Below, in pieces: positions 5,725 to 64,000 of a DNA stretch of 64,000 nt. Positions within the stretch are counted from its first letter, which is position 1; every line of letters begins with the position of its first letter. A program made the translations under genes and the position numbers. This DNA comes from Candidatus Omnitrophota bacterium (GTDB lineage: Bacteria > Omnitrophota > Gorgyraeia > 2-01-FULL-45-10): assembly GCA_026387175.1 (NCBI GenBank), contig JAPLME010000012.1, forward strand, positions 69,849-133,848. The letters run 5' to 3'. The notes beneath the pieces were generated by a model. The model searched no databases and was not told the origin of the DNA. It was given only the letters and a program-made list of their open reading frames with translations.

Positions 5725-6066
5725 ATGCTCAGAGGCTGTATAGTTATTTTAATCCTGACGTTCGGAATATTGATATTTTCTCCCTCCTGCCCTAAAGATA
5801 GTCTTGCCCAACAAAACATACGCGCCGTGGAAGGCAAGATATACGCGATAGATACATTCAAATCCACCGTTACCGTGAAGTCACTCATGCTCGCTCCGGT
5901 TATCAAATATAGCGATGTCACTCTCTTCGTCGGGCCCAATACGAAAATAAAGCGTTTAGGCAGTGACATAAGCATTTTCGATCTTACTATGGGTTGCCCT
6001 GTAAATGTCCAATATGCCGATAAAGTTGGCACCCCGGAAGCATTATCGATCACGGTTACTAAATGA
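5725..6066 (+). CDS. secreted/lipoprotein-like hypothetical protein
   Basis: SD gaggtgag. Hydrophobic N-terminus LILTFGILIFSPSCP (lipobox-like Cys). Confidence 0.5.
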   Translation: MLRGCIVILILTFGILIFSPSCPKDSLAQQNIRAVEGKIYAIDTFKSTVTVKSLMLAPVIKYSDVTLFVGPNTKIKRLGSDISIFDLTMGCPVNVQYADKVGTPEALSITVTK

Positions 6067-27761: not shown

Positions 27762-27797
27762 TCTGGTTAGAGACTCAAGAATTCAAGGGAGATCGTT

Positions 27798-28250: not shown

Positions 28251-28275
28251 AACCTAAACTAAACCCCGGGGGTCT

Positions 28276-35099: not shown

Positions 35100-35135
35100 A
35101 ATTTATCAGGACACAAAAAAAGGGGCGCTTCATAT

Positions 35136-36338: not shown

Positions 36339-36342
36339 TCTT

Positions 36343-36412
36343 TAAAATAGGGACAGCGCCCTATTTGTTTTCGAATAAGTCCGGAAAAATAGGGCGCTGT
36401 CCCTATTTTTCA
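36343..36412 (+). terminator. palindromic double hairpin with T-tract between MFP and RND genes (intra-operon attenuator/terminator candidate)
   Basis: aaaATAGGGacagcgCCCTATtt ... aaATAGGGcgctgtCCCTATTTTT. The two arms are exact reverse complements. Confidence 0.45.
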
Positions 36413-36426
36413 AGAGAAAATAACCA

Positions 36427-39615: not shown

Positions 39616-39679
39616 AATCTGATCCACCGAGGGATTGGTCTTGACAAGCTTGACTACTTAAACTTATAATAAAAATTAT

Positions 39680-42600: not shown

Positions 42601-42838
42601 TATCTCCAGAGTCAGGCCTATACTTATGACAGCGTTTTCGACGATACTGGGGCTTGTACCTATGGCATTTTTAGGCGGCGAAGGCGCGGAACTCCGCGCA
42701 CCTATGGCCATAACGGTTATGGCCGGCCTTACAGTCGCGACATTTCGCACACTTACGGTAATTCCGGCAATCTATTTAAGTGTTACAAACATAGGAAAAA
42801 AACTTTTTAAGAGAAAAATAACAGAGCCAAGCTTATAA
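39680..42838 (+). CDS. RND efflux permease, subunit 2 (tandem paralogue, MdtBC-like arrangement)
   Basis: MSLSQFSIERPVTIIMIVSGILIFGCISLGLLPQELFPQ. 1052 aa. Confidence 0.9.
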   Translation: MSLSQFSIERPVTIIMIVSGILIFGCISLGLLPQELFPQIVYPQLTVVTPYENAAPEEIETLITKPIEEAVGTVAGVKRIRSISKEGLSLVIAEFGWSQNINFAALGMREKIDLVKERLPREAEEPIVLAYNPFDKPILLLSVTSSSESRSPVNLRRLAKKMIKDEIEKVEGVASATISGGLEREILVDINQGRLQSRQIPILDVSKAVSNANLNYPAGTIKESFYEYLIRTLGEFEKVSDVETVPVGSEEARGQQPQQQEDEPGKPSKRNVSKDKRLIYLRDIATITDDVKERTSYSRYNGKENISIAIQKQALGNTVRIIDRVKKKLEELKGDLPKDISFKVVYDQSGFIKDSINGVWDAAWQGAVLVIIVLYYFLRNAKSSLIVAFTIPISIMATFSLMFLSGVSINMMSLSGLAFGVGSLVDAAIVVIENIFSHMQSGEDPKKAAIIGANEVSTAVAGAILTTVVVFLPLIFVVGIVGQITKDFALTVTFSLMTSWVASMTIIPLLASRGLKILDKDPKTVAIVRHFYEKQTVKYVNAPGKYIFQTFIVFLLSLTLFIFMDKELMPKVDQGQFTVKIDMPAGTRLEVTNTVSEKIEKFLLTIPEVEAVSATVGSTKESSTKSIVDRLNYNQAEIVVSLKKKRKLKSSDVVQIVKSHLATMKLEGARIDYVLQENVLAAGTAVQAPVTIEIKGNDLKVLENLAREVQKALGSIKGIYGVKNNLSEPSPEIKVYIDKDKASLYGLSVTDIAQTSLIGLKGFVSSKLKDKGEEYDIRVRLRKQDRDNFDKLARIELQTPTGAKIQLSSVASFTRGKGPSEIIRMEQERVVLVYANIYDRALKDVTSDVDNILTKIHVPNNYTFKLAGESEEMKTSFDSLRNAIIAAFLLVYMIMAALFESLWQPFVVMFSIPLSLIGVAWGLFITHTSVSAYVLIGIGILGGIDVAHTVVLIDCINLYISRGMSTKEAALAASISRVRPILMTAFSTILGLVPMAFLGGEGAELRAPMAITVMAGLTVATFRTLTVIPAIYLSVTNIGKKLFKRKITEPSL

Positions 42839-52100: not shown

Positions 52101-55100
52101 GTCGAAACTCGAAACAGTCAGAGATATCACGCCTACGCGCTTCCAATCAGGGTTCAATACATTCGTGAGGGCGCTGGCCATTTCTATAGGCGTCGTCTTT
52201 GCATTGCAGATGGCCGGCGGTATTCTCGCCACCACTCTCATCTCGCTTGGTTTTATAGTCGTGACTGCGGTGGTTGCCGGCTTGGTGGCCAGAAGTATCG
52301 AGAATAGATCTTACAGAGCGAAACTGCCGGTATTTATAGGCGGAGCCTACGGTATTATCGCGGCAGTGGGTCTTATAGTCTTGTCCGCAATATTCGGAAC
52401 GCCCGCTGTATTCTCCTCGGCCCTTATCATGCCGCTCATATCCATTCCGGTCGCGGTTATCGGGATAGCGATGATGATATTGCAGGTGGTCCAGGCGCGC
52501 AAGGTGGCCTTGGAAGCTGAACGCGCCGGCCAGAGTTACTGGAGAACTTTAGCGGAATCGTTCGTGCCAAATTCGCGCAATATATTGATGTACGCTATGT
52601 CGCTACCGGCCGTGTTTATACTATTCAGCGGAGCTGTTCCAGCGCTGATATTTGTGGGCGCGGTAGGGTTTGGAACTCTCCTTATTAATAAATACAGCGT
52701 GAACATCGAGAAGATGACCGGCCGTAAGATGTCGGAAACTATTTCAGGAATGGCAGGACAGGCTATAATGTTATCGGCAGGCGCCGCTCCGATGGTGGCC
52801 TACCCGCAGGCCGCGTATTCTGCGCAGGTGGAGAGCTTAAAGGCCGGTCTGAAGCAGGGCGCGATGGACCGAGCTGCCATAGCCGCCGCTGAAACTATAG
52901 GCAAATATTCTCCGAAGCAGTTCTCCGGATTCGAAAGATTGAGCAATAATATTAGCAGTGTTTTTGATGATATCATGAATGGGAAAGCGGTTGTGGCGCC
53001 TGAAACACTTCAAATTACCGCACCCGCGGCTCCGCAAGTTACTGAAAAAGCTATTGAAGAGCAAGTGAAGCCGAAGGAGAAGCCTCAGGTCGGCGAAACC
53101 CCCGGTGGCGGCACTGCAGGACAGGGCCCTGCAGCAGGGCCCGGCGCGGGTGGAATTCCTCCGCCACCGCCTGTTATTCCCGAAGTGCAACCTGCTCCTG
53201 AGCAGATTTCGCCTGTGCCTACGCCTGTAAGGATGGAAAAACCGGATCTTGCGAGTGTCTTGAAGGATGCCCGGGAAAGTAACCTCGCTGTCGCGAAACT
53301 CGTATCCCCGCTCGCAAATTTTATAAATCAGGGTAATGTTATAAGCAATGTTGGTGGCCCCACCGATAACCCAAACATCCTGATAATCCGAAATATTCTT
53401 AAAGCTCTGGATTATAATCTAGACGGAGAGGCTGTCGCAGCGCTCCAGGAAAAGCATAACCTCGCGAAACAAGATGGAAAGATCGGCCGCGAAACTATGG
53501 CTGCGCTAATAGGAGAGCTATTAGCGCTGGATAACAGCGCGGATGTCGCTAAAACGATAAGCAAGAACACCGCTATGGAAATAGCGTCCCTTCGGGAAAA
53601 AGCGGCAGAGGTCGAAAAGAAGCAATTTGCCGGCGCGGCAGGGGTTAATCAAGCTGGAGCTAATCCAAAACTTCTTGATAATATGGCAGCGCTCCAAGAG
53701 GAGATATACGCTAAGTATGGCTGGCGGTTCTACAAGCTTAGCGTAGTGCGGACGAAAGAAAGAGAAGCCATGGTCGTTAAGAAACACTATAAGGATCTTA
53801 AGTATAAGGATAGCGAGAAGATAGCGGAGCTCGCCGATTATATCATTGATCCCGCAAATTCTCTGCTTCCCGCTGATGAGGCGAATCAACTTAAGGCGAG
53901 ATATCCTGATGTTGAGCGGCTTATTAACAACAGCCCGCATGTTAGAGGGATCGCCATGGATATCTATTTAATAGATGAAAATGGGATAGTTCGCGATTCA
54001 CATGTTTCCGCTAATCGTTATATGTATGATATAGTCGGCAAGCTTGCGGCGGAAAAATACGGCATGATATATGGCGGCAATTTCAAAGGCCTATTCAAAG
54101 ACGACACTATGCATTTCCAGCTTGATCCTCGTAATCTAGCAATTGAACTGGCCAAAGAGGAAGCTGCCGCGGCCAAAGAGCCAAAGAAGGTTACGAAGAA
54201 GGCAATGGAAAGAAAGCCTCGCGCCGGGCTTGACGAAGCATTCAAGAGAATAGAGAATTGGGCAGGAAAGGTGGCAGCCACCGTTAAGTCTGCAGCCGAT
54301 AAATTAACATTAACGCCTATGGGATTTCCGATCTGGGGAACTTCGGCCGCATGCAGTCCGTCGAACGGGGAATATTTAATTGCCGGAGGCCCGCTTGGCA
54401 GTATAGGTAAAGCTGACAAGTGCTATGTTTTTGGTAGAGAAGGAATTATAGCCCCTCATGCGAGTTTCCTCGCCCTTGACGTAGCGCCTGCTGAAGCGAT
54501 GTGGAATATAGACGAAATGATAAAATTATATCCTCAGGTGCTCGGTAAATACGGAATGTATGATTCCGTAAATGCGAAGAACGAACAATCCTCCAGACAG
54601 TATGTAGCGGTCAACCAGGCCATGAGTTTCATAGCTATGGTCAATTGCCTAAAAGGTGGAGTTATACAAGACCGTTTTGCCTCAAATGCAGCTATCAAAA
54701 AGTCAATCAGCTTATTGAACGAGACGTTCGACAAGATAGAGACTCCTGCCGGCCTATCACTCGATAGAAACATTTCTTCGGAAGACAGGAATAGGCTTCT
54801 GAGTATAGCTCAAAAGACCTGGGACTACTTTAAAGATAACGTTAATGAGAGCACAAACTGGCTGCCGCCAAACATGATAGATTCGCGAGGAGCCGCCGTT
54901 AAGCATACTTCCATAACCGACATAGGGCTCTACCTTACAAGCATTGTCGGAGCAAAAGAATTAGGGCTTATCGATGAGGCTGAGGCCAGGACCAGGATCA
55001 TCAACACTATAAATACTCTCAAGAAATTGGACAAGTGGAACGGGCTATACCGGAACTATTATCATACGGATGACTTGAAGTCCGTGACAAAGGGAGACAG

Positions 55101-58100
55101 GCACATCTCTACCGTTGACAATGGATGGCTCGCCGCAGGCCTTATAATTGCCGGTGAGACATTCCCTGGATTACAGGCAGAGACGGCAAACATCGTCATG
55201 AACATGAAGTTCGATAAGTTGTATGATGCTAAAGAGCAAAAGTTCGCCAATGGATATGACGAAGATACAGGGCTGACAAAGTCGCACTATGGACTTATCT
55301 ATACCGAGATACGCCCGGCGTTACTGATAGCGATAGCAAAAGGCGATATACCTAAAGAAGCCTGGCTGAAGACATCTAAGACATTACCCGAAGCGTGGGA
55401 TTGGCAGGCCCAGAAACCGAAAGAAGGCTATTACGAACACCGGGTTAAGACGGGCGTAGGAGTTGAGACGGCCCATTTCATCCCTTCATGGAACGGCACT
55501 ATGTTCGAGGGTCTGATGCCGAACATGATTTTAAATAATAGAACGCTTTCACCGAACGGCTACGCGAAACAGGACGCGATGTATGTATTCCTGCAGAAGT
55601 ATTTCGCTACGGGATTCCGCGAGGTAGCGCCGCCGGTTACTGAAACGCCAACACCAGTTACCCAGCCACAGGTGGCACCAGCGCCAGCTGCTCCGGAAAA
55701 GGGAGAGATACCGCAGTTCGCGGATCTTGCGAATGCTTTAAAATATGCCCGGGAAAATAATCCTGCCGTCGCAATCCTTATATCGAGACCATCTAACTTC
55801 ATAAATCAGGGTAATGTTATAAAGAGGACCAAGAGCCCTGGTATTGATCCAAACACTAAAGTGATTCAGGGCGCTTTGATCTCGCTCGGCTATGATCTAC
55901 CGAAGTATAAAGATGACGGAATATACTGGACGGAGACGGAAGCCGCGGTTAGAAAATTCCAGGAAGATCACAGACTAGCAAAGCGTGATGGAAAAGTCGG
56001 CCGCGAGACGATGACTTCCTTAATAAGAGAGCTGCTATTACGCGAGAGTAAGGCAAGACCTACTCCAATTGAGACGGCCGTTACTCCGGTTGCTCCATCT
56101 GCTAAGCCGATCGTTATCGCAGCTCCCAAGCCTGCTGTTACCGCGGTCCCTTCACCCGCCAAGCCGGCCGTGACCGTTCCGCAGGCTAAGCCAACTGTTA
56201 CTGCAGTTCCCCGGCCCGCTGAACCGGCTGTGGCTATCGCACCGGCTAAGCCAGCTGTCTCCGTGGTTCCTTCATCCGCCAAGCCGGCCGTTACCGCGGC
56301 GCCTAAGCTCGCTAAACCGCAAGTCAGCCCGGCTCCGGAAACCGCTGTAGCCGCAACTCCGGCGGAGTTAAAAGCCGCGCGGCAAGCACTCTTCAGAAAG
56401 AAGGGAGAGTATGGCGCTGAACTATCGAAAGCAACCAGAAAGCTTGACGAACTAAAAGAGGTTAAGGTAAGAGCCTCTGCGCAGATTAGCGGTAATCTTA
56501 AAGAGCTTGACAGGGAAACAATTCCTGCCGGGGCATTGGTCCCGACCGGTCCGCAGCGTAGGGTATCGTTCAGGGATGCTTCTGAAAATAGCACTGCATC
56601 AGCTGATGCCGAGATGAAGAGGCTCAGGATAACAAGGCAGGAACTTCTCGCGAAGCGCACATCGCGGTTATATTGGCCGGAAGTCATCGGTTTTGCGGGC
56701 ATTGGTTTCCCGGGGGCCGCATTTGTAGGAGTGACTGTAAGTCATTGGCTGAAATACCCTGGACGAGAGACTATAGTAGAGAGCGCCGAAATGAAAACTG
56801 AGCGGGCGAAGCAGGAAGAAGCCTTGTTCAAGAGGCAGCTTCTCTTCGGATTGACCAGGGCGTTCGGCCTTTGCCAGATAGCGGAAAAGGAGCTTGACGC
56901 CGCCCAGGTCTCATATAAAACAAGCTTAGAAGCGCTAAAGACGGCGCTTGCGCAGTTTGAAAAAGGGGAACTTACGAAGGGCGAGCTGGAGAATTTAAAA
57001 GCGAAACAGAACGAAGCGAACGTCAGGTATCTGAAAGCGCAGCAGGCATCGAGAAACGCGAGAGAGCTGGTAAAGTCATTAGCAGGCTATGACGTTAGAG
57101 AAGGAGTGGAGATAGATACTTCAGTTTCGCCGGATAAAGAATTTGCCAGGGAACTGGAAAAATTGGAAGACAGGAACAGGCAACCCCGTATATTACTTAA
57201 AGTCTTGGGTATTAAGGACCAGACATTGAATACCCTTTTCGCTATGGAGCAGCGTAATACAGCAGTAAAGTTAAATGCCCGCGCGACGCTCAATTTAGGC
57301 GCTGTAACGAGCGCCAATTTCGGAGTCGGATTTGAGATCACTCTCGGTAAAGATGTAGATCTCCAGCTCCGCCAATTAGAGGAGAGGCTGGCGGAAGGCA
57401 AATATATTCAGGAATTGAGAAACATGTACTTGGAAAGTGCCGAACTGATGCATGGTTTGAAACTGTATAACGACACATTAGCGCGGCTCGTAAAGATAGC
57501 TAAGAACGCGAGAGAAAAGGCGGAAGAAGATAAAGTAAAAGCTAAAAATAATATTATTTCACAGGATGATTATCTAAAGAAAGAATTGGAAGCGATAAGA
57601 GCCGAGGTGCTGGTAAAACAATTCAAGGCTTTGATAAAAAATGTTCGCAGCATGCTGGCGGAACTGGGCATCGAATCAAATGACATACCCCGCAATCTCT
57701 CGGAGGAGAATATGCTCGTCGCCGCTAAAGAGTTGATGCGGCGCAGAGCCAACGAATCGATATTATATCTAAAGGCATTAAAGACTCCCGAGAGCACACT
57801 TCGGAAGATAGACGAAAACGTCAATAACCTTTTAGCGGATAGATCGTTCTATCGCGAGGCCACGAACAGATGGGTAGTAGAGGAAGCGGAGATCTTCGAA
57901 AAGATACAGAAGAGAATAGTTTCGGAAGAGATTATGAAGAACAAGTCTTTAAAAGAACGCGTTCAGACATTGAGCGCCGGCTATACATATACAAGAGAAC
58001 AAGCTGTTGCGCAGCAGACTCTTTCCACAGGACAGGCGCCTATCGGAGGAGGAGGCGGCGCGCCGATAATTCAGCCGTGGCCGTCAACAGCCGTTTCTTC

Positions 58101-61100
58101 TACAGGAGCCGCTCCTTCTGCAGGAAGCAACCCTTCCACAGGAGCCGCTCCTTCGGAGCCGAGCGCTGCCACTACGTCCGGCACGCTTTCAATGGGCGCC
58201 GTTATACGAGTAGCCGATCCCGCATTCAAAGCGAGAATTGCTTACAGAGGCAGCCTCCAAGAAATGTTCAATGCGTATGTAAGGGCGGCAAAGAGCGATC
58301 AGATGATAGAGGCTGAGAGGGCTCAGATCGATGAAGAATTGCTAAAATTCGAACTGCGGGAAGCCAAGAAAAGGCTGGATCTGGCGGTAAGATTAAGAGA
58401 GCTTCGCGATCGCCAGGATAAGGATCAGAAAGTAAGGATAGATGCCGCCGGAAAAGATTTCGACGTTCATAATAACGAACTTCAGGCGAAGAACGATGTT
58501 GCCGATCTTGAACGAAGGCTCAAAGAAATACAATTTAAATATTCCGTGAGAAAGAGTTCGCTTAAATACGGCGTGGATCTTACCGCGGAAGTCGATAAGC
58601 TCATAAAGACATTGGAGTCGATAGATCGGGTGGTCGATATAGCCGATAAGGGAGAGCCATATGATCTTTCTATAACTGGAGAAAATAATATAAAGAATAA
58701 GAGCTGGTGGATAGGCTTGCAGTTGCCTTTCCCCATATGGTTTACAAGCAGGTGGGCCGCTAAAAAGATCAATGTCAAACAAGTGAAAAAAGACCAGCAG
58801 TTGGAGCAGGAGAAAGCAGCGAGTGTAATAATAGGGTGGATAAATGATGATCTGAAAACCGATAATGATCTTACAACCGCCAAGGCGAATGTTAAAGGGG
58901 CGGAGGAGATGATAGCGAAGATCACCAAAGAATTAGACAGGTTAAAAGGAAAAGGCTCGCGAGAAGATATCGTTCTTCGTATAGAGATGGACCTTGCCAG
59001 ATCCAGGATGGCGCTGGAAAATGCAAAAGGAGTTTTAAAGAAAGCAGGGCTCGTAAAAGAACGATCGAAGAAGATCCTTACGGCACTGGACAACTCTCTC
59101 AGAAGAACAGACGATGTTTTGATGGAGTCGCCTTCTGTGACTAAGCTAAAAGATTTTGCGAGAGAGGCATTGAGCCAAAAACGCAGAGGCGACAAGATCT
59201 CGATCACATGGGAAAAGTTTAAAGAGCTGGCGGAAAAGAATGCTGTCCCGGTCAAAATCGCTACCACCGAAAAAGAGAAGAGCGAACTGGAGCTGACGAA
59301 GAAAAAATTGACGGCCCGTCTACCGTACCTCTTCCTTGGAGCCCCTTATGCGCCGGGCGCCGGAAACGACACTTTCCGCTATGGCCTTACGGCTTATACC
59401 GACCCTTCAAGATGGTTTGAGCTCACCAACCCCGCCATTAAAGAGGCCAGGCTCGAAGATATGATAAAACAATTGGATAGCGAAAAGGAAAAGCTTAACA
59501 CGAGATTAGATATAGACGGCGCATACGGAGCCTACAGAGTCGCGCTTGTGAAAGCGGAATCCCTGAAATCTATACTTAAGAAGATGAGAGAGCAAAGATC
59601 GCGCATGGAAGCGCATACCAGGATATATCCAGAATCCGGCGGCGAAGCAGTCAATAGATATGATGTCCTTATCGCGGATACGGAAAAGACGCTGAGAGAT
59701 ACGACGGCTCAGATCAATGATCTCAAGATAAAGATGATGAATATGCTGCAGAGCGTAGGCGATATAGATTTTAAGGATGAGTCCGGCAGATCCGTAGGAT
59801 TGGAGAAGGTAGATTTTGATGCTATCTGGCCCAAAATAGAGGCCGGCCACCCCGATATAAAAGCGCTCAAACTTAGAATAGATAAAGAAGAAGTCTCCGC
59901 AAGGGCCGTATTGCGCGACAATTGGTGGACGGAGCTTTCAATTTCGCTCGTAAACAGCGAAAAATTAACGCCAGGGCTGAATTTAGTTTTAAATGTCAGG
60001 TTGAACCCGAGCTATTGGGAAAATAACGCGGAAAAGATCAGGGTAAAGGAAGTAAAGGAAGAGCTTAGAAAGAACCTTTTTGAATTAAGGCGTAAGATAG
60101 ATGACTCTATATCGAGACGCGCCAATCTTATTGCATCGATAAAGTTGGCAGAAGGTGTTTACAAAGAGAGAGCGCGTATGGTGGTGGAGGAAAGAAAGAA
60201 CTACCTCAACACCACTATTCCCACGGACAAATTACGCGAGAGAGAATACGATCTTCTGGAGGCCCAGAAGGAATACTTTGCGCAGCTTGCGGAACTCCGT
60301 ACAATAGACGCGCAGTTAAAAGATATTGTGGAAAAAGTAGGCGGCAGGATAGAAGAGACCGGCGTGGAAGAGGTTAGGAAAGATATAGTGCGTACTGAGG
60401 AACTCAGCAATGATTTTGCGGATCTCGGCGCGCAGATAGCTATGGCGGAACAGGCCAGACGAGTGGCTTCAAGGGGGATCAAATGGGTCGATAAAGCTTT
60501 AAATAGATTATCGAAAGGCATTACGCCGGAAGACGATCTGGCCGCAGCTCTCGTAAAGACGATGGAGAAGAGTGCTTCGATCGAAGTCAACGCAGCCAAT
60601 TTAAAAGAAGCCGGATATATATCCAGGGAGAAAATGGCCGAGATAGCCGTGCTTATGGGAATGCCGAAGACCCGGGCCCAGGAGCTTGAACGCGTTCAGG
60701 ATCTTCTCAGAGTAGTCTTTGATAGATATAGAAAAGCGCATAACATGACAAAAGATGAAATGTCGGCATATATAGGCAACTTCATATATTTCGCCCGGAC
60801 CATCCTGCCCAAAGTCAAGACAATCGAAACGTTACCCGAATTTGTCGGCACCCAATTCGCGTTCGTGGATAGAGATGAAACCTTAAGTTACAAAAAGCTC
60901 GGGCTGGTAAGCTACTACGCAAGGCGGGCGACCCTTCTTCTGTCGCCGGGATACAGTTGCGAAGGGAAAGGCCAGGGCGCGGCCAGAGATACGCTAGTGA
61001 AGAAAGAGGCCCCTGAAGATATCAAATTCTTAAATATGTATGACAGGATGGCCAAAGGCGGGACCTTAACCGCCGCCGATTACGAGCAATATATAAAATG

Positions 61101-64000
61101 GCACGATGAATTTGTAGCGAAGTTTGACGAGTCCGAATGGGCCAAGTTCACTTTGGACGAGATAACCGTGATGTCGAACCGCGCGAAGGAGTTCGCGACG
61201 CTTCTCCAGAAAAAGGGCCTTTACCTCTTCGGCGACATGAAAGACAAGGGTATCCTAAGCCTCATAGCGAGCCTTATTAAAGTAAACGGCTGGGAAGGAA
61301 AGATGCCGTCGGTGGTCGATACGGTCGCCGCTGTATCGCCAGCTGTGAACAAGTTCTACGGCGAAGTGACGGCCAAAGAGATAGCGAGTACACCAGAAGG
61401 CGCCAAGCTGAAGATGCTTTCCGGGTTAGTGAGCACGGAATCCGACAAAGAGAAGCTGGAATTTTATAAGAATGAATACAGTAAAACCCTTAAAGAGGCA
61501 AAAGAATCGCTAGCGCTCGGCAGGGCCATCTCGTGGGCACGTTTTGTGCTGGACAGGAACCTCGCCCCCGAAGATATGGATATGATGTTCCGCAGATTAT
61601 CCAATCTATCCGCTATAGATAAATACCTGATCGGGACAAAATCCGAGAAAGAGGGGCAGAAGATCGCCATAGTGATAGATCTGGTTACAAATCATAGGGT
61701 CTACAAAGATTTCTTCAATAAAGATGGCACTGTCAAAGATGAGGCGAAGGTTAAGAAGCTGTTTAGTATCTTCGGCAATCTTTCGGCTCTTGACCCTACG
61801 CTAAAAGCTTACGGGTATGCGGCACCTTCCGAGAGAAACGGAATGAAGATAGCGATCGCAAGGGATATCGCCCTTCAGACCGATGCCGATGCATGGAGCG
61901 CGTTTTTTGACTTAGAGGGCCGTATTATAAATCCCGGCAATGTGGATAAGCTGGTTAAATCCTTTACCAATATCTTTGTCCTCGATAGCCTGGGTTATCT
62001 CAAAAACGCAGGCTACGCGAAAAAATCCGATAAAGAAGGTGTGAGAATGGCCATAGCCAGAGACCTGGTCCTGAGGCCAAACGCTTGGAAGAGCTTCTTC
62101 GATCCTGACGGCAATATAGTCGATCAAGAGAAGGTCAAAACTTTATTCAATGTGATACTACCTAACATTGCCAAAGGCCTCGTTTCCGAAAAGATCGAGG
62201 TGCCCGGCACTGAATATGAAAAGACCGGATATATCATGGCCATAGCCAGAGACCTTGTAGAATATCCGCAGAAATGGTCGGGTTTCTTTGACGCAAAAGG
62301 CAACATAATAAAAGAAAATAATTATGTCAAAACCCTGTTCGAGGTTATTCTAAAGAATAAAGATATTCTAGAGAGTTACATGCTTCATATAGACGATAGA
62401 AAAAAAGGATCGACAGGATTTTATACAAAATCCTCTCGGCTTGAGAGAAGCGGTATGCTTACTCCGATGGCGAGAGACCTTACTACTACAGGCATAGATT
62501 CGAAAGAAAAACTGATAGAAGAGCTGGATTACAGAAAAGAGATTTTCAAGGCAGCGAATTCAAACGACGTAAAGTTATTTGATGAGCACCTTCCTTATCT
62601 TTCCGTATACACCAGGAAAGTATTTAAAGAATACGGAGACATATATAAAGACAAGACAGGAAAAGAGCTTACTCTGGACATACTGTTTAAGAATATCGCT
62701 TATGCTCGAGATACGGTCTATCCGATGGCAGGAAAAGATCTCTTAGAAGATTTGAAGGGTAAGCGCGAAAGTTGGGAGACAGATAGCGAAAGAAAGGCAC
62801 TGCTTAAACACATTGAGATGCTTAGGAATGAAGAGATAAATTTTGAATCGGCGGTTTATCTTGGCACAAAATATATGGTCTTAAAAGGCTATACGATAGA
62901 AGACGATAAGAGTAAGGAAACATATTTCCAGGAAGTCAAAAACAGGTTATATTTCCAGGCCGTGTATATGGCCAATAATGAAAATGAAAGATTGCAGCAA
63001 GGCGAGATAGGCCAGCTGCTTACTTTCCGTGCAACGGATAACTATAGCAGAATAGACATGGGTAAATTCATAAAATATGCGTCTGTATTCATCAGGAAAG
63101 AAAAAGAACTGTTAAATTCATTAGTTAAAAAGTTCGGGGAAGAGGCAATGGGAGCGTATCAATTTGCCACTAGAGGCCAGCGGTCCGGATTTATTACCTA
63201 TATGCATCGCAAAGGCTGGGACCAGAAAAAGATGGACGAGATATTTAAAGATATCGAATTCATCCAGATGGAAGAATACACTGCCACAAGTAATAAAAAG
63301 TTTATCGGATGGGAGAATATATTCCCTGTTCTTTATCAGTTGCGCGGTGATGGTGATAAGCCGCTCGATATGTGGGAGCAAAAACGCGCGCACCTCAGGT
63401 TCCAAAGCACTTTTAAACAGGATTACGCATTTATGTACGCAGGGCCTTATGAACCGCTCGCTCAGCTTATGAGAAAATGGAAGGGTGACTTTGGTGAGTT
63501 GCCATCCGCGGCTGAAAGATCGGATACTTTAAAAGTCATGGGTCTCTTGCCCGAAAAATTGCGTGATGATAATACGGAATTGCCCGAGACAAGGCTCCGT
63601 CAGGCTAAGTTAGGCGAATTCACCGAAGAGCTTGGCAGTATATATAAATCATTCGCTGTTCTCATGGCAGGACCTGTTTATGAAAAGGATATGAATGCAG
63701 ATATCCTGGCCGGACTAGAGGAACCTTGGAAAGATATGAGAGAATTTGTTGGCGATAAACTCATGAGATTTATCACCGACAAAACAGACCGATACTACAG
63801 GATAGAAGATAATCATGAAAGGCTGAACTTAAAGGAAGAGACATTAAGGCACTATCGGTATGAACTAAAGGATGAAAAGAAGAATAGGGAGAAAGGGAAT
63901 ACCGACATTCTATTGGATCCGGCCAGAAGAGCGGAAGCCATTGCCAGGCTGCAGAGGAAAGCCGAGGAGAAGACACCAGAGAAAGAAAGTTATAAGATAA
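43189..64000 (+). CDS. giant multidomain protein, 3'-truncated by window end (at least 6,937 codons in-window)
   Basis: ATG 43189 is 9 nt after AGAGGG. Reading triplets in that phase gives sensible protein with no stop through 64000; phase was rechecked at 43189, 48031, 49321, 57841 and 63931. The ORF track shows no stop-terminated + ORF in this phase anywhere in 20.8 kb, and only short out-of-phase or antisense ORFs. Confidence 0.85.
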   Translation, partial: MDIRNDEKTIDSAREELGSKSLIMDLQSPRHKIWMRAIAVILVVTFINQDIIWAQDGAPVWSKGQNGSFSFKPPVNVNSPINVPKDVAVTKEVYTAPGDKTIINIQDAHSSLGAQESIASVLDSLVTNYDLKLIAIEGSSGYIDTSILRAFSNENVRKGTASYLVKEGRMSAGEFFTVTSNKPVALYGIEDKPLYQENLEQFRAVYQANSEIRKDIENLLSSLKTLQDKIYSQELKDLTTNSVLHKDGKLTFTERWSLVKALADRTGSDYKRYENLTKLVESLKLEKDISFEKANKERDSLIDALSKKASKQDLEQIVLKSLSYKTGKISHGEYYVFLQEQAEKAGIDAEPYKNLISYTNYITLYESIDLTAIFEEVRDFEDQIKEKLFTGEDQKKLYEITKCMEYLRDIFDLKLTNGDFEYLAKNIEHCNAGFVASFIRDASIKYGVTIDTDYDLGKIFGALPQAMDFYRTAEKRNHTILANTIATMKERNQNVAALITGGYHSQGITELLRQNRTSYIVILPKFDASKGERPYVAILTNKSAPYEKLLKSGQYFIATSAYLAGISKLNEDVNNLPAGKDSKELINSSEFKELRARLADSLIASLLQSVTGAAGVDAAVLAFKKRQQVNLLGAGREMKAAVEQYLRDYTMLLEREGAGFRDANVKPLSPEVLQELVREVILDYAGFDISAEEPTEAKGLATEKVIPLVEERIKGLTKRIEVLEDQDKQAKIDKIIDIVKSAANLESSDWKEKVATAVATELRRKGLGTEEQDNITNRIITDLEQQAVAAAKPVVVAVPAAQTPAVPMVLSQAPTAVEPAALPAPTMLDQGGKDLAGKLAEAIGKQLDIIEENMNGIPWGEKNLSADTMKKLQQMKEAGLGITKIIDQTAKNIDLSPHQRALIDTISRGGEIKFYDLKNGIAPLVSYLDMIIKDENAHELLTKILERCKQTVSYLKRASFENEPMAVLTIRISGEELNFVQLRDWKKEPPETPEEWKGKLAQDGLNAREIDAKLKELADKTVIAPTPPIKPTPTVSESAAQRVILDFSSKNAKLAFDALIETLKTETVDTEKAIIDSMIPKNSTPDQPTTVLHLAGAEQRGFNDFLRNEVEVKRNAKLIGLDLNYSLADEEKKLFIGDITGDNSRKIADGSVNTIISVNFFNAECYKLYEKARETPLSETDYYINIAAEIYRMLRNGGKLYIAGSSVTSEFEKAFKAESFKMMPLDDTMPGFYEIIKIAKAGPETPGGPSERVGSVAGETPVAPPAVQAAQRILVEVCGKAGYPFVNILLTFILTLFILVSSSVYSIAAPARTVPGGPQIKLAQAVKMPTAVRTKAPVKAQPAPVQAVKPPSLVAEKQFALDQKKLRDAIDTYFAKMASSQYFMYRAPRLNSESKMIENPLLIDAFVNNRGKLALKDFRGVPGLENMPETRIDNINRIIDEIWRSVDKTALPEYIKGKLVLDRKTGRLSPVEELQKTLFALSVLAPDTYEYLKNDNAPIVLVDTDWFSGATKGDTFFGMIARNPRGVKIELSSRNNTVKRVGTAVHEAIHRKRGDVATGYFSLYLKTLGRIRELFVSLPSFEKEPIKKQQDFYKKELLINVSAEVLNNAYLSQRWWLGLIGVMAWVLTIITPAVLIAKLIVSLVSSKKEGAGRRPGPTTFMLAFILPLIATGLAGLPVIGQQVNNFAGMLFSPIPLPEIAPGEKVAAKKKAGSDVQTIVDRTIGKFYAGINAPPVVLDNNLFDRFCAFDPEDGTIHISPRAYDPKTGRVIEEVRLFHLPHEAFHYALQMTPINKNEKAHEIAATYLALLNIITNRSSLTKLINAANPVDGREVSAGMKGIVKYFESFGFDVKNINNYRALLSALNVDGLRGIASYLASTNPDFRNISDRDMASAVRLISSKPQDGIFKPLKKLDALGINKKGYLANPYLYADKLVRFEDAGVKLSAKNLSLLSLGRDNIKPYVEIALASGINPNDMTLAILRAQKAEVAVPAAAPAILLEEAKAPAPVEPAELQLPAAIPPVVEIIPGETDIQKKALQVFGEVRGIPAEKLSYRKGQIEAVEAMKEGKFAELRTGGGKTLTEGVTALEVLNDPIRQTVWPGEKVLIMTHEDNLTEQAMVKDKMGAILSKCGAVTGFILPKVMANGSVAEIGVIFENGVEVESEAAIDKVFERCDIIYGKWDRFVHRNMKERLGTDTLEMNTNKYFTLFDEADLMLVFGSATPCIISGKDMDDAEKRLAVRKGINSIVKEMVLKNQKRYLYIPQGTREAYLTDSGEQAIEKKIRELYKDNEYKELLDIAVKNWKIFAMDALQANLFYKVDEQYFLRTDEKGKVIGVDVCDTDTKARKTGMSFGEGLQQAIEISAGVADANLTPETYTSMSMAIGNFLSRDIITDYAGASGTMEKERFENMYMDKHGKIKTVLKIEGESQTLDKSAGHTGFNTREEKWAALIDRLPAKMSLGQPILIKIESDAEMAELKKYIEANMASMLAERGTIINLASGRNAAEFTENIAKAGYGNVITIVTNIAHRGIDIEIKGRFLNNDGTEGAKVPPIDKDAPGLHVISTYLDEPEAFEIQTQGRADRGANKGSWEGLFSLDEKIFTEHVTLLDQQIAALRNAVGKGDKTAIDGLMAADGRTVRLGLIAEIRDRIVSEQSRNDEKRREYENEVFAYQEKILGLLNITTSRDEFIKFLKAIGAYDGIVNNLKEGETIDEKIAVLAQLTVSVLTDEMSKFQTEQQVIRKRLDYLAREARLGLRPALIQFNKEIANLALLARTFDARIKDAKAFVSAIIAQDMGDKVENVAETGKRSLRDLISTNFIKTFASIIMIVGAGFLTAKYGFSSLADSILQPLVTLLTAHPLLAGIAAAMMLISAVYLKQLYGKKIGVLDTSNTEFLRFTVGVGRGNFFKAFGRWTGIMALQILAGPGLFVGAGTLIAAIAHPILAVGSVALPLALVTVTLALAANITLIAIFKSKLETVRDITPTRFQSGFNTFVRALAISIGVVFALQMAGGILATTLISLGFIVVTAVVAGLVARSIENRSYRAKLPVFIGGAYGIIAAVGLIVLSAIFGTPAVFSSALIMPLISIPVAVIGIAMMILQVVQARKVALEAERAGQSYWRTLAESFVPNSRNILMYAMSLPAVFILFSGAVPALIFVGAVGFGTLLINKYSVNIEKMTGRKMSETISGMAGQAIMLSAGAAPMVAYPQAAYSAQVESLKAGLKQGAMDRAAIAAAETIGKYSPKQFSGFERLSNNISSVFDDIMNGKAVVAPETLQITAPAAPQVTEKAIEEQVKPKEKPQVGETPGGGTAGQGPAAGPGAGGIPPPPPVIPEVQPAPEQISPVPTPVRMEKPDLASVLKDARESNLAVAKLVSPLANFINQGNVISNVGGPTDNPNILIIRNILKALDYNLDGEAVAALQEKHNLAKQDGKIGRETMAALIGELLALDNSADVAKTISKNTAMEIASLREKAAEVEKKQFAGAAGVNQAGANPKLLDNMAALQEEIYAKYGWRFYKLSVVRTKEREAMVVKKHYKDLKYKDSEKIAELADYIIDPANSLLPADEANQLKARYPDVERLINNSPHVRGIAMDIYLIDENGIVRDSHVSANRYMYDIVGKLAAEKYGMIYGGNFKGLFKDDTMHFQLDPRNLAIELAKEEAAAAKEPKKVTKKAMERKPRAGLDEAFKRIENWAGKVAATVKSAADKLTLTPMGFPIWGTSAACSPSNGEYLIAGGPLGSIGKADKCYVFGREGIIAPHASFLALDVAPAEAMWNIDEMIKLYPQVLGKYGMYDSVNAKNEQSSRQYVAVNQAMSFIAMVNCLKGGVIQDRFASNAAIKKSISLLNETFDKIETPAGLSLDRNISSEDRNRLLSIAQKTWDYFKDNVNESTNWLPPNMIDSRGAAVKHTSITDIGLYLTSIVGAKELGLIDEAEARTRIINTINTLKKLDKWNGLYRNYYHTDDLKSVTKGDRHISTVDNGWLAAGLIIAGETFPGLQAETANIVMNMKFDKLYDAKEQKFANGYDEDTGLTKSHYGLIYTEIRPALLIAIAKGDIPKEAWLKTSKTLPEAWDWQAQKPKEGYYEHRVKTGVGVETAHFIPSWNGTMFEGLMPNMILNNRTLSPNGYAKQDAMYVFLQKYFATGFREVAPPVTETPTPVTQPQVAPAPAAPEKGEIPQFADLANALKYARENNPAVAILISRPSNFINQGNVIKRTKSPGIDPNTKVIQGALISLGYDLPKYKDDGIYWTETEAAVRKFQEDHRLAKRDGKVGRETMTSLIRELLLRESKARPTPIETAVTPVAPSAKPIVIAAPKPAVTAVPSPAKPAVTVPQAKPTVTAVPRPAEPAVAIAPAKPAVSVVPSSAKPAVTAAPKLAKPQVSPAPETAVAATPAELKAARQALFRKKGEYGAELSKATRKLDELKEVKVRASAQISGNLKELDRETIPAGALVPTGPQRRVSFRDASENSTASADAEMKRLRITRQELLAKRTSRLYWPEVIGFAGIGFPGAAFVGVTVSHWLKYPGRETIVESAEMKTERAKQEEALFKRQLLFGLTRAFGLCQIAEKELDAAQVSYKTSLEALKTALAQFEKGELTKGELENLKAKQNEANVRYLKAQQASRNARELVKSLAGYDVREGVEIDTSVSPDKEFARELEKLEDRNRQPRILLKVLGIKDQTLNTLFAMEQRNTAVKLNARATLNLGAVTSANFGVGFEITLGKDVDLQLRQLEERLAEGKYIQELRNMYLESAELMHGLKLYNDTLARLVKIAKNAREKAEEDKVKAKNNIISQDDYLKKELEAIRAEVLVKQFKALIKNVRSMLAELGIESNDIPRNLSEENMLVAAKELMRRRANESILYLKALKTPESTLRKIDENVNNLLADRSFYREATNRWVVEEAEIFEKIQKRIVSEEIMKNKSLKERVQTLSAGYTYTREQAVAQQTLSTGQAPIGGGGGAPIIQPWPSTAVSSTGAAPSAGSNPSTGAAPSEPSAATTSGTLSMGAVIRVADPAFKARIAYRGSLQEMFNAYVRAAKSDQMIEAERAQIDEELLKFELREAKKRLDLAVRLRELRDRQDKDQKVRIDAAGKDFDVHNNELQAKNDVADLERRLKEIQFKYSVRKSSLKYGVDLTAEVDKLIKTLESIDRVVDIADKGEPYDLSITGENNIKNKSWWIGLQLPFPIWFTSRWAAKKINVKQVKKDQQLEQEKAASVIIGWINDDLKTDNDLTTAKANVKGAEEMIAKITKELDRLKGKGSREDIVLRIEMDLARSRMALENAKGVLKKAGLVKERSKKILTALDNSLRRTDDVLMESPSVTKLKDFAREALSQKRRGDKISITWEKFKELAEKNAVPVKIATTEKEKSELELTKKKLTARLPYLFLGAPYAPGAGNDTFRYGLTAYTDPSRWFELTNPAIKEARLEDMIKQLDSEKEKLNTRLDIDGAYGAYRVALVKAESLKSILKKMREQRSRMEAHTRIYPESGGEAVNRYDVLIADTEKTLRDTTAQINDLKIKMMNMLQSVGDIDFKDESGRSVGLEKVDFDAIWPKIEAGHPDIKALKLRIDKEEVSARAVLRDNWWTELSISLVNSEKLTPGLNLVLNVRLNPSYWENNAEKIRVKEVKEELRKNLFELRRKIDDSISRRANLIASIKLAEGVYKERARMVVEERKNYLNTTIPTDKLREREYDLLEAQKEYFAQLAELRTIDAQLKDIVEKVGGRIEETGVEEVRKDIVRTEELSNDFADLGAQIAMAEQARRVASRGIKWVDKALNRLSKGITPEDDLAAALVKTMEKSASIEVNAANLKEAGYISREKMAEIAVLMGMPKTRAQELERVQDLLRVVFDRYRKAHNMTKDEMSAYIGNFIYFARTILPKVKTIETLPEFVGTQFAFVDRDETLSYKKLGLVSYYARRATLLLSPGYSCEGKGQGAARDTLVKKEAPEDIKFLNMYDRMAKGGTLTAADYEQYIKWHDEFVAKFDESEWAKFTLDEITVMSNRAKEFATLLQKKGLYLFGDMKDKGILSLIASLIKVNGWEGKMPSVVDTVAAVSPAVNKFYGEVTAKEIASTPEGAKLKMLSGLVSTESDKEKLEFYKNEYSKTLKEAKESLALGRAISWARFVLDRNLAPEDMDMMFRRLSNLSAIDKYLIGTKSEKEGQKIAIVIDLVTNHRVYKDFFNKDGTVKDEAKVKKLFSIFGNLSALDPTLKAYGYAAPSERNGMKIAIARDIALQTDADAWSAFFDLEGRIINPGNVDKLVKSFTNIFVLDSLGYLKNAGYAKKSDKEGVRMAIARDLVLRPNAWKSFFDPDGNIVDQEKVKTLFNVILPNIAKGLVSEKIEVPGTEYEKTGYIMAIARDLVEYPQKWSGFFDAKGNIIKENNYVKTLFEVILKNKDILESYMLHIDDRKKGSTGFYTKSSRLERSGMLTPMARDLTTTGIDSKEKLIEELDYRKEIFKAANSNDVKLFDEHLPYLSVYTRKVFKEYGDIYKDKTGKELTLDILFKNIAYARDTVYPMAGKDLLEDLKGKRESWETDSERKALLKHIEMLRNEEINFESAVYLGTKYMVLKGYTIEDDKSKETYFQEVKNRLYFQAVYMANNENERLQQGEIGQLLTFRATDNYSRIDMGKFIKYASVFIRKEKELLNSLVKKFGEEAMGAYQFATRGQRSGFITYMHRKGWDQKKMDEIFKDIEFIQMEEYTATSNKKFIGWENIFPVLYQLRGDGDKPLDMWEQKRAHLRFQSTFKQDYAFMYAGPYEPLAQLMRKWKGDFGELPSAAERSDTLKVMGLLPEKLRDDNTELPETRLRQAKLGEFTEELGSIYKSFAVLMAGPVYEKDMNADILAGLEEPWKDMREFVGDKLMRFITDKTDRYYRIEDNHERLNLKEETLRHYRYELKDEKKNREKGNTDILLDPARRAEAIARLQRKAEEKTPEKESYKI
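46450..46810 (+). other. giant protein sub-region: class-I SAM-methyltransferase-like fold (degenerate)
   Basis: VLHLAGAEQRG...KLIGLDLN....LFIGDITGDNSRKIADGSVNTIISVNFF......INIAAEIYRMLRNGGKLYIAG follows the motif I / post-I / II / III spacing of Methyltransf_11-type domains. Confidence 0.4.
49290..50990 (+). other. giant protein sub-region: SecA-homologous ATPase motor (NBD1-PPXD-NBD2)
   Basis: Motifs in SecA order: AELRTGGGKTLT; IIYGKWDRFVHRNM; LFDEADLMLVFGSATPCIISG; MSFGEGLQQAIEISAGV; YAGASGTM; TNIAHRGIDI; QTQGRADRGANKGSWEGLFSLDE. Confidence 0.8.
51630..52810 (+). other. giant protein sub-region: polytopic membrane domain (~8-10 TM helices)
   Basis: Consecutive 20-25-aa hydrophobic stretches (FASIIMIVGAGFLTA..., IMALQILAGPGLFVGAGTLIAAIA..., ALAISIGVVFALQMAGGILATTLISLGFIVVTAVVAGLVA..., and others). 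Confidence 0.65.
53230..53520 (+). other. giant protein sub-region: PG_binding_1-like domain, copy 1
   Basis: NFINQGNVI...ILIIRNILKALDYNLDGEAVAALQEKHNLAKQDGKIGRETMAALIGEL. Confidence 0.55.
53650..54130 (+). other. giant protein sub-region: M15-family zinc D,D/L,D-peptidase-like domain
   Basis: SPHVRGIAMDIYL fits the SxHxxGxAxD zinc motif. DDTMHFQLD fits the C-terminal His of VanY/M15_4-type peptidases. Confidence 0.55.
54290..55610 (+). other. giant protein sub-region: alpha/alpha-barrel glycoside-hydrolase-like domain (GH144/putative-glucoamylase-like)
   Basis: STNWLPPNMIDSRGAAVKHTSITDIGLYLTSIVGAKELGLI...NGWLAAGLIIAGETF...W resembles DUF3131/glucoamylase-like patterns. Recalled from memory, weaker than the other calls. 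Confidence 0.4.
55720..56040 (+). other. giant protein sub-region: PG_binding_1-like domain, copy 2
   Basis: NFINQGNVI...VIQGALISLGYDLPKYKDDGIYWTETEAAVRKFQEDHRLAKRDGKVGRETMTSLIREL. Confidence 0.65.
56050..56340 (+). repeat. in-frame tandem ~33-nt repeats encoding (P/S)AKPAVTAVP units
   Basis: AKPIVIAAPKPAVTAVPSPAKPAVTVPQAKPTVTAVPRPAEPAVAIAPAKPAVSVVPSSAKPAVTAAPKLAKPQV. Confidence 0.7.
56800..60400 (+). other. giant protein sub-region: several TolC/OEP-like repeats
   Basis: ATLNLGAVTSANFGVGFEITLGKD, KNKSWWIGLQLPFPIWF, DNWWTELSISLVNSEKLTPGLNLVLNVRL, each followed by helical QL..LE..L..G.IS..D.L-type segments characteristic of the OEP family (PF02321). Confidence 0.55.
61650..62480 (+). repeat. 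four in-frame ~58-aa tandem repeats ([GN]xKIAIARD[IL]..x..W..FFDxxGNI.......VKxLF.)
   Basis: QKIAIVIDLV...FFNKDGTV; MKIAIARDIALQTDADAWSAFFDLEGRII; VRMAIARDLVLRPNAWKSFFDPDGNIV; YIMAIARDLVEYPQKWSGFFDAKGNII. Confidence 0.65.

Follow-up and report, generated by a model that had tools for sequence, protein, structure and literature searches.

Three tandem TolC-like units within a giant open frame with a SecA-like ATPase in an Omnitrophota bacterium

In the 64,000-nucleotide stretch of DNA analysed here (the window), one giant open frame carries a module of ~1,320 aa, which we count as six OEP-type repeats in three units, each the size of a TolC protomer. The frame (nt 43165-63999, forward strand, frame 1) is uninterrupted for >6945 codons and runs past the end of the window, with ATG codons at 43189, 43258 and 43291 as candidate starts. 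We somewhat favour the view that the module is a single-chain, pseudo-trimeric TolC-like outer-membrane duct, lying in a periplasmic stretch of a giant protein that is anchored in the inner membrane. The three units are the following:

56566..57864, forward strand: TolC-like unit 1, repeats R1 and R2, aa 4468-4900 (Pfam OEP, hhalign, AF2 helices)
57862..59220, forward strand: TolC-like unit 2, repeats R3 and R4, aa 4900-5352 (Pfam OEP for R4)
59197..60534, forward strand: TolC-like unit 3, repeats R5 and R6, aa 5345-5790 (Pfam OEP for both repeats)

The initial annotation had assigned this region to the OEP/TolC family and proposed a PF02321 search, which proved positive (E 4.5e-21, 75.9 bits against a gathering cut-off of 22), with four stretches between 56.6 and 60.5 kb. 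As judged from sequence, this match is far beyond chance. The stretches fall at aa 4484-4638 in unit 1 (E 3.2e-11), aa 5175-5288 in unit 2 (E 2.4e-6), and aa 5352-5482 and 5555-5719 in unit 3 (E 3.6e-4 and 2.6e-5), and are in phase with the PF02321 model, at positions 19-184, 49-172, 4-141 and 5-183, respectively. The same repeats are OEP-positive in orthologues: R4 also in the fragments P0002 and P0001, and both stretches of unit 3 also in L003 and P0002, the last of which bears the NCBI name "TolC family protein, partial". When aligned to an Omnitrophota TolC alignment by hhalign, unit 1 matched over 318 columns covering both of its repeats (E 1.7e-4), and it is only inside this match that R2 is seen by a profile; units 2 and 3 gave no significant match to the Omnitrophota TolC profile. 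R2 and R3 fall below Pfam OEP significance on their own in every orthologue, a home-made HMM failed to tell them from decoys, and the six repeats show no significant similarity when compared pairwise. No NCBIfam family matched aa 4401-5800 at E <= 0.01, including TIGR01844 (type I secretion TolC) and TIGR01845 (NodT). The module thus shares the OEP profile of the TolC/OMF family (PF02321; e.g. E. coli TolC 1EK9, OprM, CusC 3PIK, CmeC 4MT4), but two of its six repeats are undetectable by profile and it is just ~17% identical in sequence to Omnitrophota TolCs.

An unbiased charge scan of aa 4400-5800 for segments with <=14% charged residues (regional mean 33%) returned exactly six low-charge islands, whose starts are 198-236 aa apart. 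The islands are 36-41 aa long, apart from one of 92 aa, a size compatible with hairpins:

56674..56751, forward strand: putative hairpin 1, WPEVIGFAGIGFPGAAFVGVTVSHWL (OEP stretch, charge scan)
57265..57348, forward strand: putative hairpin 2, VKLNARATLNLGAVTSANFGVGFEITLG (hhalign, charge scan)
57961..58221, forward strand: putative hairpin 3, VQTLSAGYTYT ... TLSMGAVIRVADP (charge scan, tip indels)
58657..58740, forward strand: putative hairpin 4, PYDLSITGENNIKNKSWWIGLQLPFPIW (OEP stretch, charge scan)
59320..59406, forward strand: putative hairpin 5, LPYLFLGAPYAPGAGNDTFRYGLTAYTDP (OEP stretch, charge scan, tip indels)
59923..60009, forward strand: putative hairpin 6, WWTELSISLVNSEKLTPGLNLVLNVRLNP (OEP stretch, charge scan, tip indels)

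The hhalign match of unit 1 puts hairpin 2 onto the second TolC hairpin. Hairpin 3 is the weakest of the six, with a G/P/S/A-rich tip of ~60 aa and an 18-bp tandem repeat at 58089-58154, and R3 is recognised only by its pattern of a low-charge island followed by helices of 67 and 38 aa. The initial annotation had noted at least three hairpin blocks following a "TM helix" at 56.69 kb, and all four peptides that it quoted lie in frame 1 of the giant frame: VIGFAGIGFPGAAFVGVTVSHW at aa 4507-4528 (nt 56683-56748), LNARATLNLG...LEERL at aa 4703-4742 (nt 57271-57390), NKSWWIGLQLPFPIWFTSRWAAKK at aa 5178-5201 (nt 58696-58767) and DNWWTELSISL...YWENN at aa 5585-5621 (nt 59917-60027). The blocks are present, but they number six, the supposed TM helix included: VIGFAGIGFPGAAFVGVTVSHW is part of the first OEP stretch and occupies the place of the first beta-hairpin. 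Since the orthologous segments carry E, R and D at this point (GIPEIWFTGIEARWW; GLSEGIFARIDAGWW), it is more likely a beta-hairpin than a TM helix, and its counterpart in L003 stays under the hydrophobicity threshold.

Structure prediction with AF2 placed a helix of 66, 66, 67, 59, 65 and at least 66 aa after the six islands, followed in each case by a second helix of 34-48 aa. In unit 1, helices of 66 and 36 aa and of 64-66 and 34 aa were predicted with pLDDT 75-95. The pattern after all six islands agrees with the OMF repeat motif, in which two transmembrane beta-strands are followed by a ~100 Å helix and by shorter helices stacked as a pseudo-helix (PMC8277102 section 6.2). Neither run produced beta-strands, and the hairpin regions were disordered (pLDDT 25-40), so that the AlphaFold check suggested in the initial annotation yielded confident helices and neither confirmed nor refuted a barrel. 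In Foldseek searches the top ranks were taken exclusively by OMFs for both models, but the scores were weak (E 2.6e-3 to 6e-3), and for unit 1 there is some circularity, since the alignment behind the model contains TolC homologues. The module resembles the TolC/OMF family in its putative hairpin, ~65-aa helix and ~35-aa return helix, and in its unit of ~440 aa. Its inter-helix turns, e.g. FEKGELTKGELENL and ESGGEAVNRYDVL, resemble the TolC turn motif, G-x-x-[ST]-x-x-[DE]-h-h.

The helices might also be a barrel-less relic, in which a TolC-type scaffold serves as a rigid periplasmic spacer or ~100 Å coiled-coil stalk and the former hairpins are loops outside the outer membrane. We regard this as doubtful, as the islands remain charge-poor and rich in aromatic residues and Gly throughout the orthologues of the module, which are 36-40% identical. 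All indels of >=7 aa among these orthologues (aa 4468-5720) fall at the tips of hairpins 3, 5 and 6 and none in the long helices, as expected of surface loops on length-constrained strands. Moreover, the Pfam alignments of R1, R5 and R6 take in the hairpin part, as they start at model positions 4-19, ahead of the descending helix.

The initial annotation had proposed that the OEP-like segments share one frame with an N-terminal anchor, a motor, a membrane domain and a lytic cassette, and this fusion holds: the motor is a SecA-like ATPase, the membrane domain is polytopic and the cassette comprises peptidoglycan-binding and hydrolase domains. The other parts of the giant protein within the window are:

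43297..43353, forward strand: N-terminal hydrophobic anchor or signal-like helix, aa 45-63 (Kyte-Doolittle scan)
47044..48225, forward strand: three more hydrophobic helices, aa 1294-1312, 1634-1652 and 1669-1687 (Kyte-Doolittle scan)
49351..50802, forward strand: SecA-like ATPase (Pfam)
51622..52704, forward strand: polytopic membrane domain, ~9-11 predicted hydrophobic helices, aa 2820-3180, count and orientation approximate (Kyte-Doolittle scan)
53374..56022, forward strand: cell-wall cassette, presumed periplasmic (Pfam)
56062..56364, forward strand: Pro/Ala-rich linker, aa about 4300-4400, part of it encoded by a 60-bp tandem repeat at 56128-56296
60535..63999, forward strand: continuation of the giant frame downstream of the TolC-like module to the window end

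The ATPase comprises SecA_DEAD (aa 2063-2408, E 6.7e-13), SecA_PP_bind (aa 2252-2368, E 2.4e-6) and P-loop_SecA (aa 2447-2546, E 5.5e-11), and no SecA scaffold or wing domain was matched by Pfam in the window part of the frame. The cassette consists of Peptidase_M15_4 (aa 3589-3653, E 2.2e-7), a glycoamylase domain (aa 3720-3841, E 1.5e-14), DUF3131 (aa 3881-4021, E 2e-11) and two copies of PG_binding_1 (Pfam, E 1e-16), at about aa 3404-3453 and aa 4229-4286, the position of the first having been read off the sequence. Two HExxH motifs are present in the giant frame. The Kyte-Doolittle scan found no hydrophobic helix between aa 3180 and the TolC-like module, and within the window the segment downstream of the module has no family match and no hydrophobic helix. 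In the orthologue L003, clusters of membrane helices return ~470 aa past the point matching the window end, ~1600 aa downstream of the module. Both termini of a TolC protomer are periplasmic, which allows the module to be part of a long segment of the giant protein in the periplasm; its putative periplasmic location depends on the inner-membrane helix count.

Besides the giant frame described here, the TolC-like module is known in only three other lineages, and its nearest relatives, like those of the neighbouring stand-alone TolC, are Omnitrophota MAGs. L003, from an independent assembly, is a 4871-codon (14.6-kb) open frame that is colinear with the giant frame and reaches ~2000 aa beyond the point matching the window end. 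Mis-assembly is frequent in giant genes, and the orthologue in CP070780.1 is split by 100-N gaps with its pieces out of order, which could suggest that a TolC gene was merged into an adjacent frame by a sequencing or assembly error. Such an artefact is very improbable here: no stop interrupts the frame over 20.8 kb, the module consists of three units and lacks its own signal peptide, and its fusion with other domains is kept in independent assemblies, colinear both in L003 and in L005, a second assembly of the L003 organism.

Upstream of the giant frame is an efflux operon that is separate from the fused protein:

33096..42838, forward strand: efflux operon (Pfam)
33096-35099, forward strand: stand-alone TolC, first gene of the operon (OEP E 2e-36)
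35136-36338, forward strand: MFP (Pfam)
36427-39615 and 39680-42838, forward strand: two RND pumps (Pfam)

The stand-alone TolC, correctly recognised in the initial annotation, has 276 close Omnitrophota relatives and matches TIGR01844 and TIGR01845, both below the model cut-offs. Since the operon thus has its own TolC, there is less reason to suppose that the giant product is a polyprotein, cleaved to free the triple-TolC module as an outer-membrane factor that serves the adjacent RND/MFP pump or some other transporter. C39 peptidase-like domains have led to the proposal that Omnitrophota giants are proteolytically processed (10.1101/2023.11.21.568195), and the Pro/Ala-rich linker flanking the module and the two HExxH motifs in frame would suit it, but Pfam found no C39 domain or similar peptidase in the window part of the frame and no cleavage site could be identified. 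We consider cleavage quite unlikely, and it is compatible with a single-chain duct.

The canonical TolC duct is a homotrimer with 3 x 4 strands. In the reading that we prefer, the three tandem, anciently diverged TolC-protomer-like units at nt about 56.57-60.53 kb, each repeat of which would form a beta-hairpin, a ~100 Å helix and a shorter helix running back, would let a single chain contribute the full set of 12 strands and 12 helices. At 433-453 aa, each unit is as large as one TolC protomer, and every orthologue has exactly three. This number fits the need of a pseudo-trimer and is otherwise without reason if each unit instead forms a trimer with its counterparts in two other giants, giving three separate ducts per trimer of giants. 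All characterised OMFs are homotrimers (PMC8277102), and the three units are mutually too diverged to align, so that each may have its own partner surface; however, three ducts on short linkers (the unit boundaries overlap) would be sterically awkward, and we judge such inter-chain assembly to be improbable. The single-chain module would differ from the OMFs in that its units are covalently linked, and it is embedded from ~aa 4468 in a protein of >6,945 aa, without its own signal peptide or lipobox. In type V secretion, a 12-strand barrel is formed from one chain (Va) or from three four-strand chains (Vc), and the barrel is covalently tied to large non-barrel domains. These systems offer a precedent for one-chain and three-chain 12-strand barrels, although their fold and family are unrelated to the module, and Pfam matched no autotransporter, intimin or YadA-type barrel domain in the giant frame. 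A surface-exposed C-terminal passenger is unlikely, because the orthologue chain returns to membrane helices downstream.

The giant frame belongs with the Omnitrophota SecA_DEAD giants, which combine SecA_DEAD with a preprotein-binding domain and lack the scaffold and wing (10.1101/2023.11.21.568195), and which likewise have many membrane helices and cell-wall or carbohydrate-active domains (10.1101/2023.11.21.568195; 10.64898/2026.06.07.730766). West-Roberts et al. highlight Omnitrophota proteins of >30,000 aa (10.1101/2023.11.21.568195). TolC, OEP and PF02321 are unmentioned in the texts of both giant-gene papers (10.1101/2023.11.21.568195 and 10.64898/2026.06.07.730766), and compared with the giants described there, the module would supply the protein's own outer-membrane component. 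Tripartite efflux and type I secretion systems have the same parts in the same order (ATPase, membrane domain, periplasmic parts and TolC-type duct), whereas the giant frame has all of them in one chain and its ATPase is SecA-like. No HlyD/MFP adaptor, ABC, RND or MFS domain was found by Pfam in the giant frame at E <= 0.1; adaptor and RND occur only in the separate upstream operon.

The module follows the inner-membrane domain, the peptidoglycan-binding/hydrolase domains and the Pro/Ala-rich spacer, and precedes the further membrane-helix clusters of the orthologue. The giant protein could accordingly be pictured as anchored in the inner membrane, spanning the wall and placing its duct in the outer membrane. 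Local clearing or binding of the wall could fall to the M15 peptidase and glycosidase-like domains, and the SecA-like ATPase and polytopic membrane domain are candidate components of the energised, inner-membrane side of an export route. As for the fused trans-envelope machine envisaged in the initial annotation, the domains are indeed fused in one frame, and the machine itself is a reading of domain order and topology. As a speculative extension only, and a rather unlikely one, we entertain a complete export machine of an undescribed kind that spans the envelope as one polypeptide. A SecA-like motor, the protein's own inner-membrane channel, domains that bind and cut the wall and a single-chain TolC-like duct of 12 strands would be combined in it, and it could secrete its own parts, products of its cleavage or other cargo through both membranes of a bacterium that is ultra-small and possibly predatory.

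All TolC-family ducts described so far assemble as homotrimers from stand-alone proteins. Three protomers joined covalently in one chain would offer a natural experiment on how a 12-strand/12-helix duct assembles, and the module, at ~1,320 aa, is small enough for separate expression and testing. In a single-chain duct the three "protomers" would be free to diverge, and both ends would be tethered to inner-membrane parts of the same chain. With three tandem TolC-like copies, one chain may therefore build the whole exit duct and bridge both membranes. A built-in duct would provide a concrete, testable model for how the giants deal with the outer membrane and for the role of the SecA-like domain, matters left open in the Omnitrophota giant-gene preprint.

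A single reading frame in frame 1 of the plus strand has no stop between nt 43165 and the window's final codon (nt 43165-63999, 6945 codons); it runs off the window end, and is hence missing from ORF lists. All four peptides quoted in the initial annotation were located in this frame at the positions assigned to them. The features of the encoded giant protein are as follows.

Domains and hydrophobic helices of the giant frame (plus strand; aa numbers count along the frame; E-values from Pfam)
aa 45-63, 1294-1312, 1634-1652 and 1669-1687: hydrophobic helices
aa 2063-2408: SecA_DEAD, E 6.7e-13
aa 2252-2368: SecA_PP_bind, E 2.4e-6
aa 2447-2546: P-loop_SecA, E 5.5e-11
aa 2820-3180: cluster of hydrophobic helices
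about aa 3404-3453 and aa 4229-4286: PG_binding_1, two copies, E 1e-16
aa 3589-3653: Peptidase_M15_4, E 2.2e-7
aa 3720-3841: Glycoamylase, E 1.5e-14
aa 3881-4021: DUF3131, E 2e-11
aa 4484-4638: OEP stretch 1, model positions 19-184, E 3.2e-11
aa 5175-5288: OEP stretch 2, model positions 49-172, E 2.4e-6
aa 5352-5482: OEP stretch 3, model positions 4-141, E 3.6e-4
aa 5555-5719: OEP stretch 4, model positions 5-183, E 2.6e-5
(the four OEP stretches together: E 2.3e-20 in the Pfam listing of the giant frame)

Since four helices precede it, the SecA-like ATPase would be cytoplasmic, and, given an odd number of helices in the cluster at aa 2820-3180, the domains that bind and cut the wall further along would be periplasmic. 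Two HExxH motifs, HEAIH (window 47824-47838, aa 1554) and HEAFH (48526-48540, aa 1788), lie in regions adjoining the membrane helices at aa 1634-1687; these regions have no Pfam match, and the motifs may be metalloprotease-like sites. A 60-bp tandem repeat (2.8 copies, window 56128-56296) encodes a Pro/Ala-rich linker preceding the TolC-like module (aa ~4468-5790). Repeats of ~95 aa with the motif [MI]AIARD[LI]...FFD..G.I can be seen by eye at window about 61840-62360 (aa about 6225-6400); they were not significant by self-BLAST and matched no Pfam or NCBIfam family.

The proposal that this polypeptide carries TolC/OEP-like repeats was borne out by PF02321 (OEP), which matches the region in four stretches with an E-value of 4.5e-21 and 75.9 bits (cut-off 22 bits), and thus supports homology. 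The core idea of the initial annotation therefore stands as OEP homology within the giant frame, while its transmembrane (TM) helix was not upheld, and the repeats probably number six, in three units. The NCBIfam TolC subfamily models gave no match to the module, and no outer membrane factor (OMF) was found among PDB sequences, either by phmmer with the region or by hmmsearch with three shallow unit profiles. Alignment of unit 1 to an Omnitrophota TolC profile covered 318 columns (E 1.7e-4, probability 49%) and placed hairpin 2 onto the second hairpin of TolC; units 2 and 3 were not significant against this profile. Judged from its sequence, the module belongs to the OEP/TolC family but is only distantly related to its other members.

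Past the cluster at aa 2820-3180, the window encodes a single further hydrophobic segment, aa 4507-4525. The supposed TM helix, VIGFAGIGFPGAAFVGVTVSHW (aa 4507-4528), is located within OEP stretch 1, at the place expected for the first hairpin of a repeat. The orthologue columns matching it, GFVGAGIPEIWFTGIEARWW and ASVG-GLSEGIFARIDAGWW, contain E, R and D, and the corresponding segment of one orthologue locus, L003 (CAYGBL010000026.1), falls below the hydrophobicity threshold. The membrane-helix reading was rejected on these grounds, and we read VIGFAGIGFPGAAFVGVTVSHW as a beta-hairpin.

A count of six repeats (R1-R6) rather than four is indicated by several independent lines of evidence. A scan for low-charge segments (22-aa windows with D/E/K/R at most 14%, against a regional average of 33%) returned exactly six within aa 4400-5800.

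Low-charge islands of the module (plus strand)
aa 4498-4538: island 1
aa 4696-4731: island 2
aa 4932-5023: island 3
aa 5168-5204: island 4
aa 5380-5415: island 5
aa 5586-5623: island 6

Five of the six islands are 36-41 aa long, and island 3 holds a ~60-aa insert rich in G/P/S/A, partly encoded by an 18-bp tandem repeat (3.7 copies, window 58089-58154) that gives the low-complexity tip of hairpin 3 and suggests a recent loop expansion. In the AF2 secondary structure of aa 4484-5683 (overall pLDDT 49), islands 1-6 are followed by helices of 66, 66, 67, 59, 65 and at least 66 aa, and each long helix by a second one of 34-48 aa. This matches the long-then-short pattern of the OMF repeat, which consists of two strands, a long helix that extends over the 100 Å of the periplasmic domain, and shorter helices stacked to an equal length (PMC8277102, section 6.2). 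Among orthologues at 36-40% identity, all indels of at least 7 aa within aa 4468-5720 fall at the tips of hairpins 3, 5 and 6 and none in the long helices, the pattern expected of surface loops on a scaffold of constrained length. The case is weakest for R2 and R3, neither of which attained OEP significance in any of the lineages: searched alone against Pfam in four lineages they had no OEP match, and with a home-made HMM built from TolC halves and R1, R4, R5 and R6 they scored inside the range of reversed and shuffled decoys. Pairwise phmmer and hhalign comparisons of the six repeats gave nothing significant (best R4-R6, E 1.3e-3), and in a beta-amphipathic-moment scan 3 of the 20 top windows fell in hairpins, no more than expected by chance.

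The islands pair up into units of 433-453 aa, the same size as a TolC protomer, and the number of units is exactly three in all orthologues. Trimerisation of each unit with units of other chains is an unlikely arrangement, and we favour the three units of one chain folding together.

Foldseek against the PDB ranked OMFs first, weakly, for both AF2 models. The model of the full region (aa 4484-5683, 4-sequence alignment) had no strands and matched 36 consecutive OMF chains (best CmeC, E 5.8e-3); that of unit 1, whose alignment included TolC homologues, had good helices (pLDDT 75-95; overall 65), no strands, and OMFs as its top 26 matches (~440 aligned columns, E 2.6e-3, TM 0.31). The hairpin regions have a pLDDT of 25-40 in both runs, too low to count against strands. 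We consider a helical spacer without a barrel improbable.

A full HMMER search of 1.84 billion representatives found five proteins related to the module, and all loci added by scanning GTDB genomes and JGI metagenomes belonged to lineages already found. Together with a word-indexed search, these gave three other lineages in all, and relatives only in Omnitrophota MAGs.

Other lineages with the module (identity)
JBDRHE010000053: 68%
CAYGBL010000026 / JABAOF010010501 / NIO73: about 40%
CP070780.1: 38%

In L003 the module lies inside a 14.6-kb stop-free frame that matches window aa 4402-6933 colinearly and runs on for about 2000 aa beyond the colinear part. The fusion thus cannot be put down to misassembly of the window, and an assembly artefact was rejected; the module in the giant frame is a real, conserved feature. 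The L003 product also has several hydrophobic-helix clusters (aa 3313-4861), about 1600 aa after the module and past the position equivalent to the end of the window, so that the giant protein seems to re-enter a membrane downstream. Because of these clusters, an inverse autotransporter, with its C-terminal part threaded out through the duct, was rejected.

Of L003 and L005 (JABAOF010010501.1), the contig labelled "uncultured Actinomycetota" carries an orthologue of the Omnitrophota giant gene; it shares 99.9% identity with a contig from a JGI metagenome and is therefore probably mis-binned. In CP070780.1 (the Omnitrophota bin17 'chromosome'), the giant gene is split by 100-N gaps with its pieces out of order, the N-terminal part lying downstream of the TolC-like part; this "complete" assembly is scaffolded across the giant gene.

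An ordinary efflux operon lies upstream of the giant frame.

Neighbouring genes in the window
33096-35099, plus strand: stand-alone TolC, OEP E 2e-36 in two stretches
plus strand, with the stand-alone TolC: HlyD-type adaptor and two AcrB-type pumps

The module is only about 17% identical to this TolC, and a recent duplication of the latter was rejected on that account. The stand-alone TolC has 276 close relatives, the named ones all from Omnitrophota, and bears a ~200-aa N-terminal extension ahead of its OEP repeats (window 33096-33692); in several of these relatives, precomputed Pfam annotation lists TPR domains (PF13414, PF07719). A ParA/MinD-like ATPase (AAA_31, E 5e-45) and, after it, an 867-aa protein consisting almost wholly of TPR repeats are encoded at window 26928-30879.

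The relatives of the module and of the stand-alone TolC make Omnitrophota, a phylum known for giant genes, the most likely origin of the window. On the basis of limited text searches, no TolC that is single-chain or fused to other domains is known to have been described. Two papers on giant genes (10.1101/2023.11.21.568195; 10.64898/2026.06.07.730766) report on proteins with SecA_DEAD domains, numerous membrane helices and domains that degrade the wall, and the text of neither mentions TolC, OEP or PF02321; a literature search combining Velamenicoccus and TolC gave no result. One orthologous fragment bears the NCBI label "TolC family protein, partial", so the TolC homology is already in databases, yet uninterpreted.

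Both termini of the TolC protomer are periplasmic, and three linked protomers would therefore fit the periplasmic stretch of an inner-membrane-anchored protein with no topological problem. We propose, as an inference throughout, that the three units fold about one axis into a 12-strand, 12-helix outer-membrane duct, the barrel being the key structural prediction for a module that AF2 models without strands. The Pro/Ala-rich spacer would tie this duct to the wall-binding and wall-cutting domains and the inner-membrane domain, and the SecA-like ATPase would face the cytoplasm. Proteolytic release of the module, which would be compatible with a single-chain duct, is less probable still than the alternatives of inter-chain trimers or a spacer. 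The single-chain duct would give the cell a one-chain export route or, minimally, a staple fixing the giant protein across the envelope.
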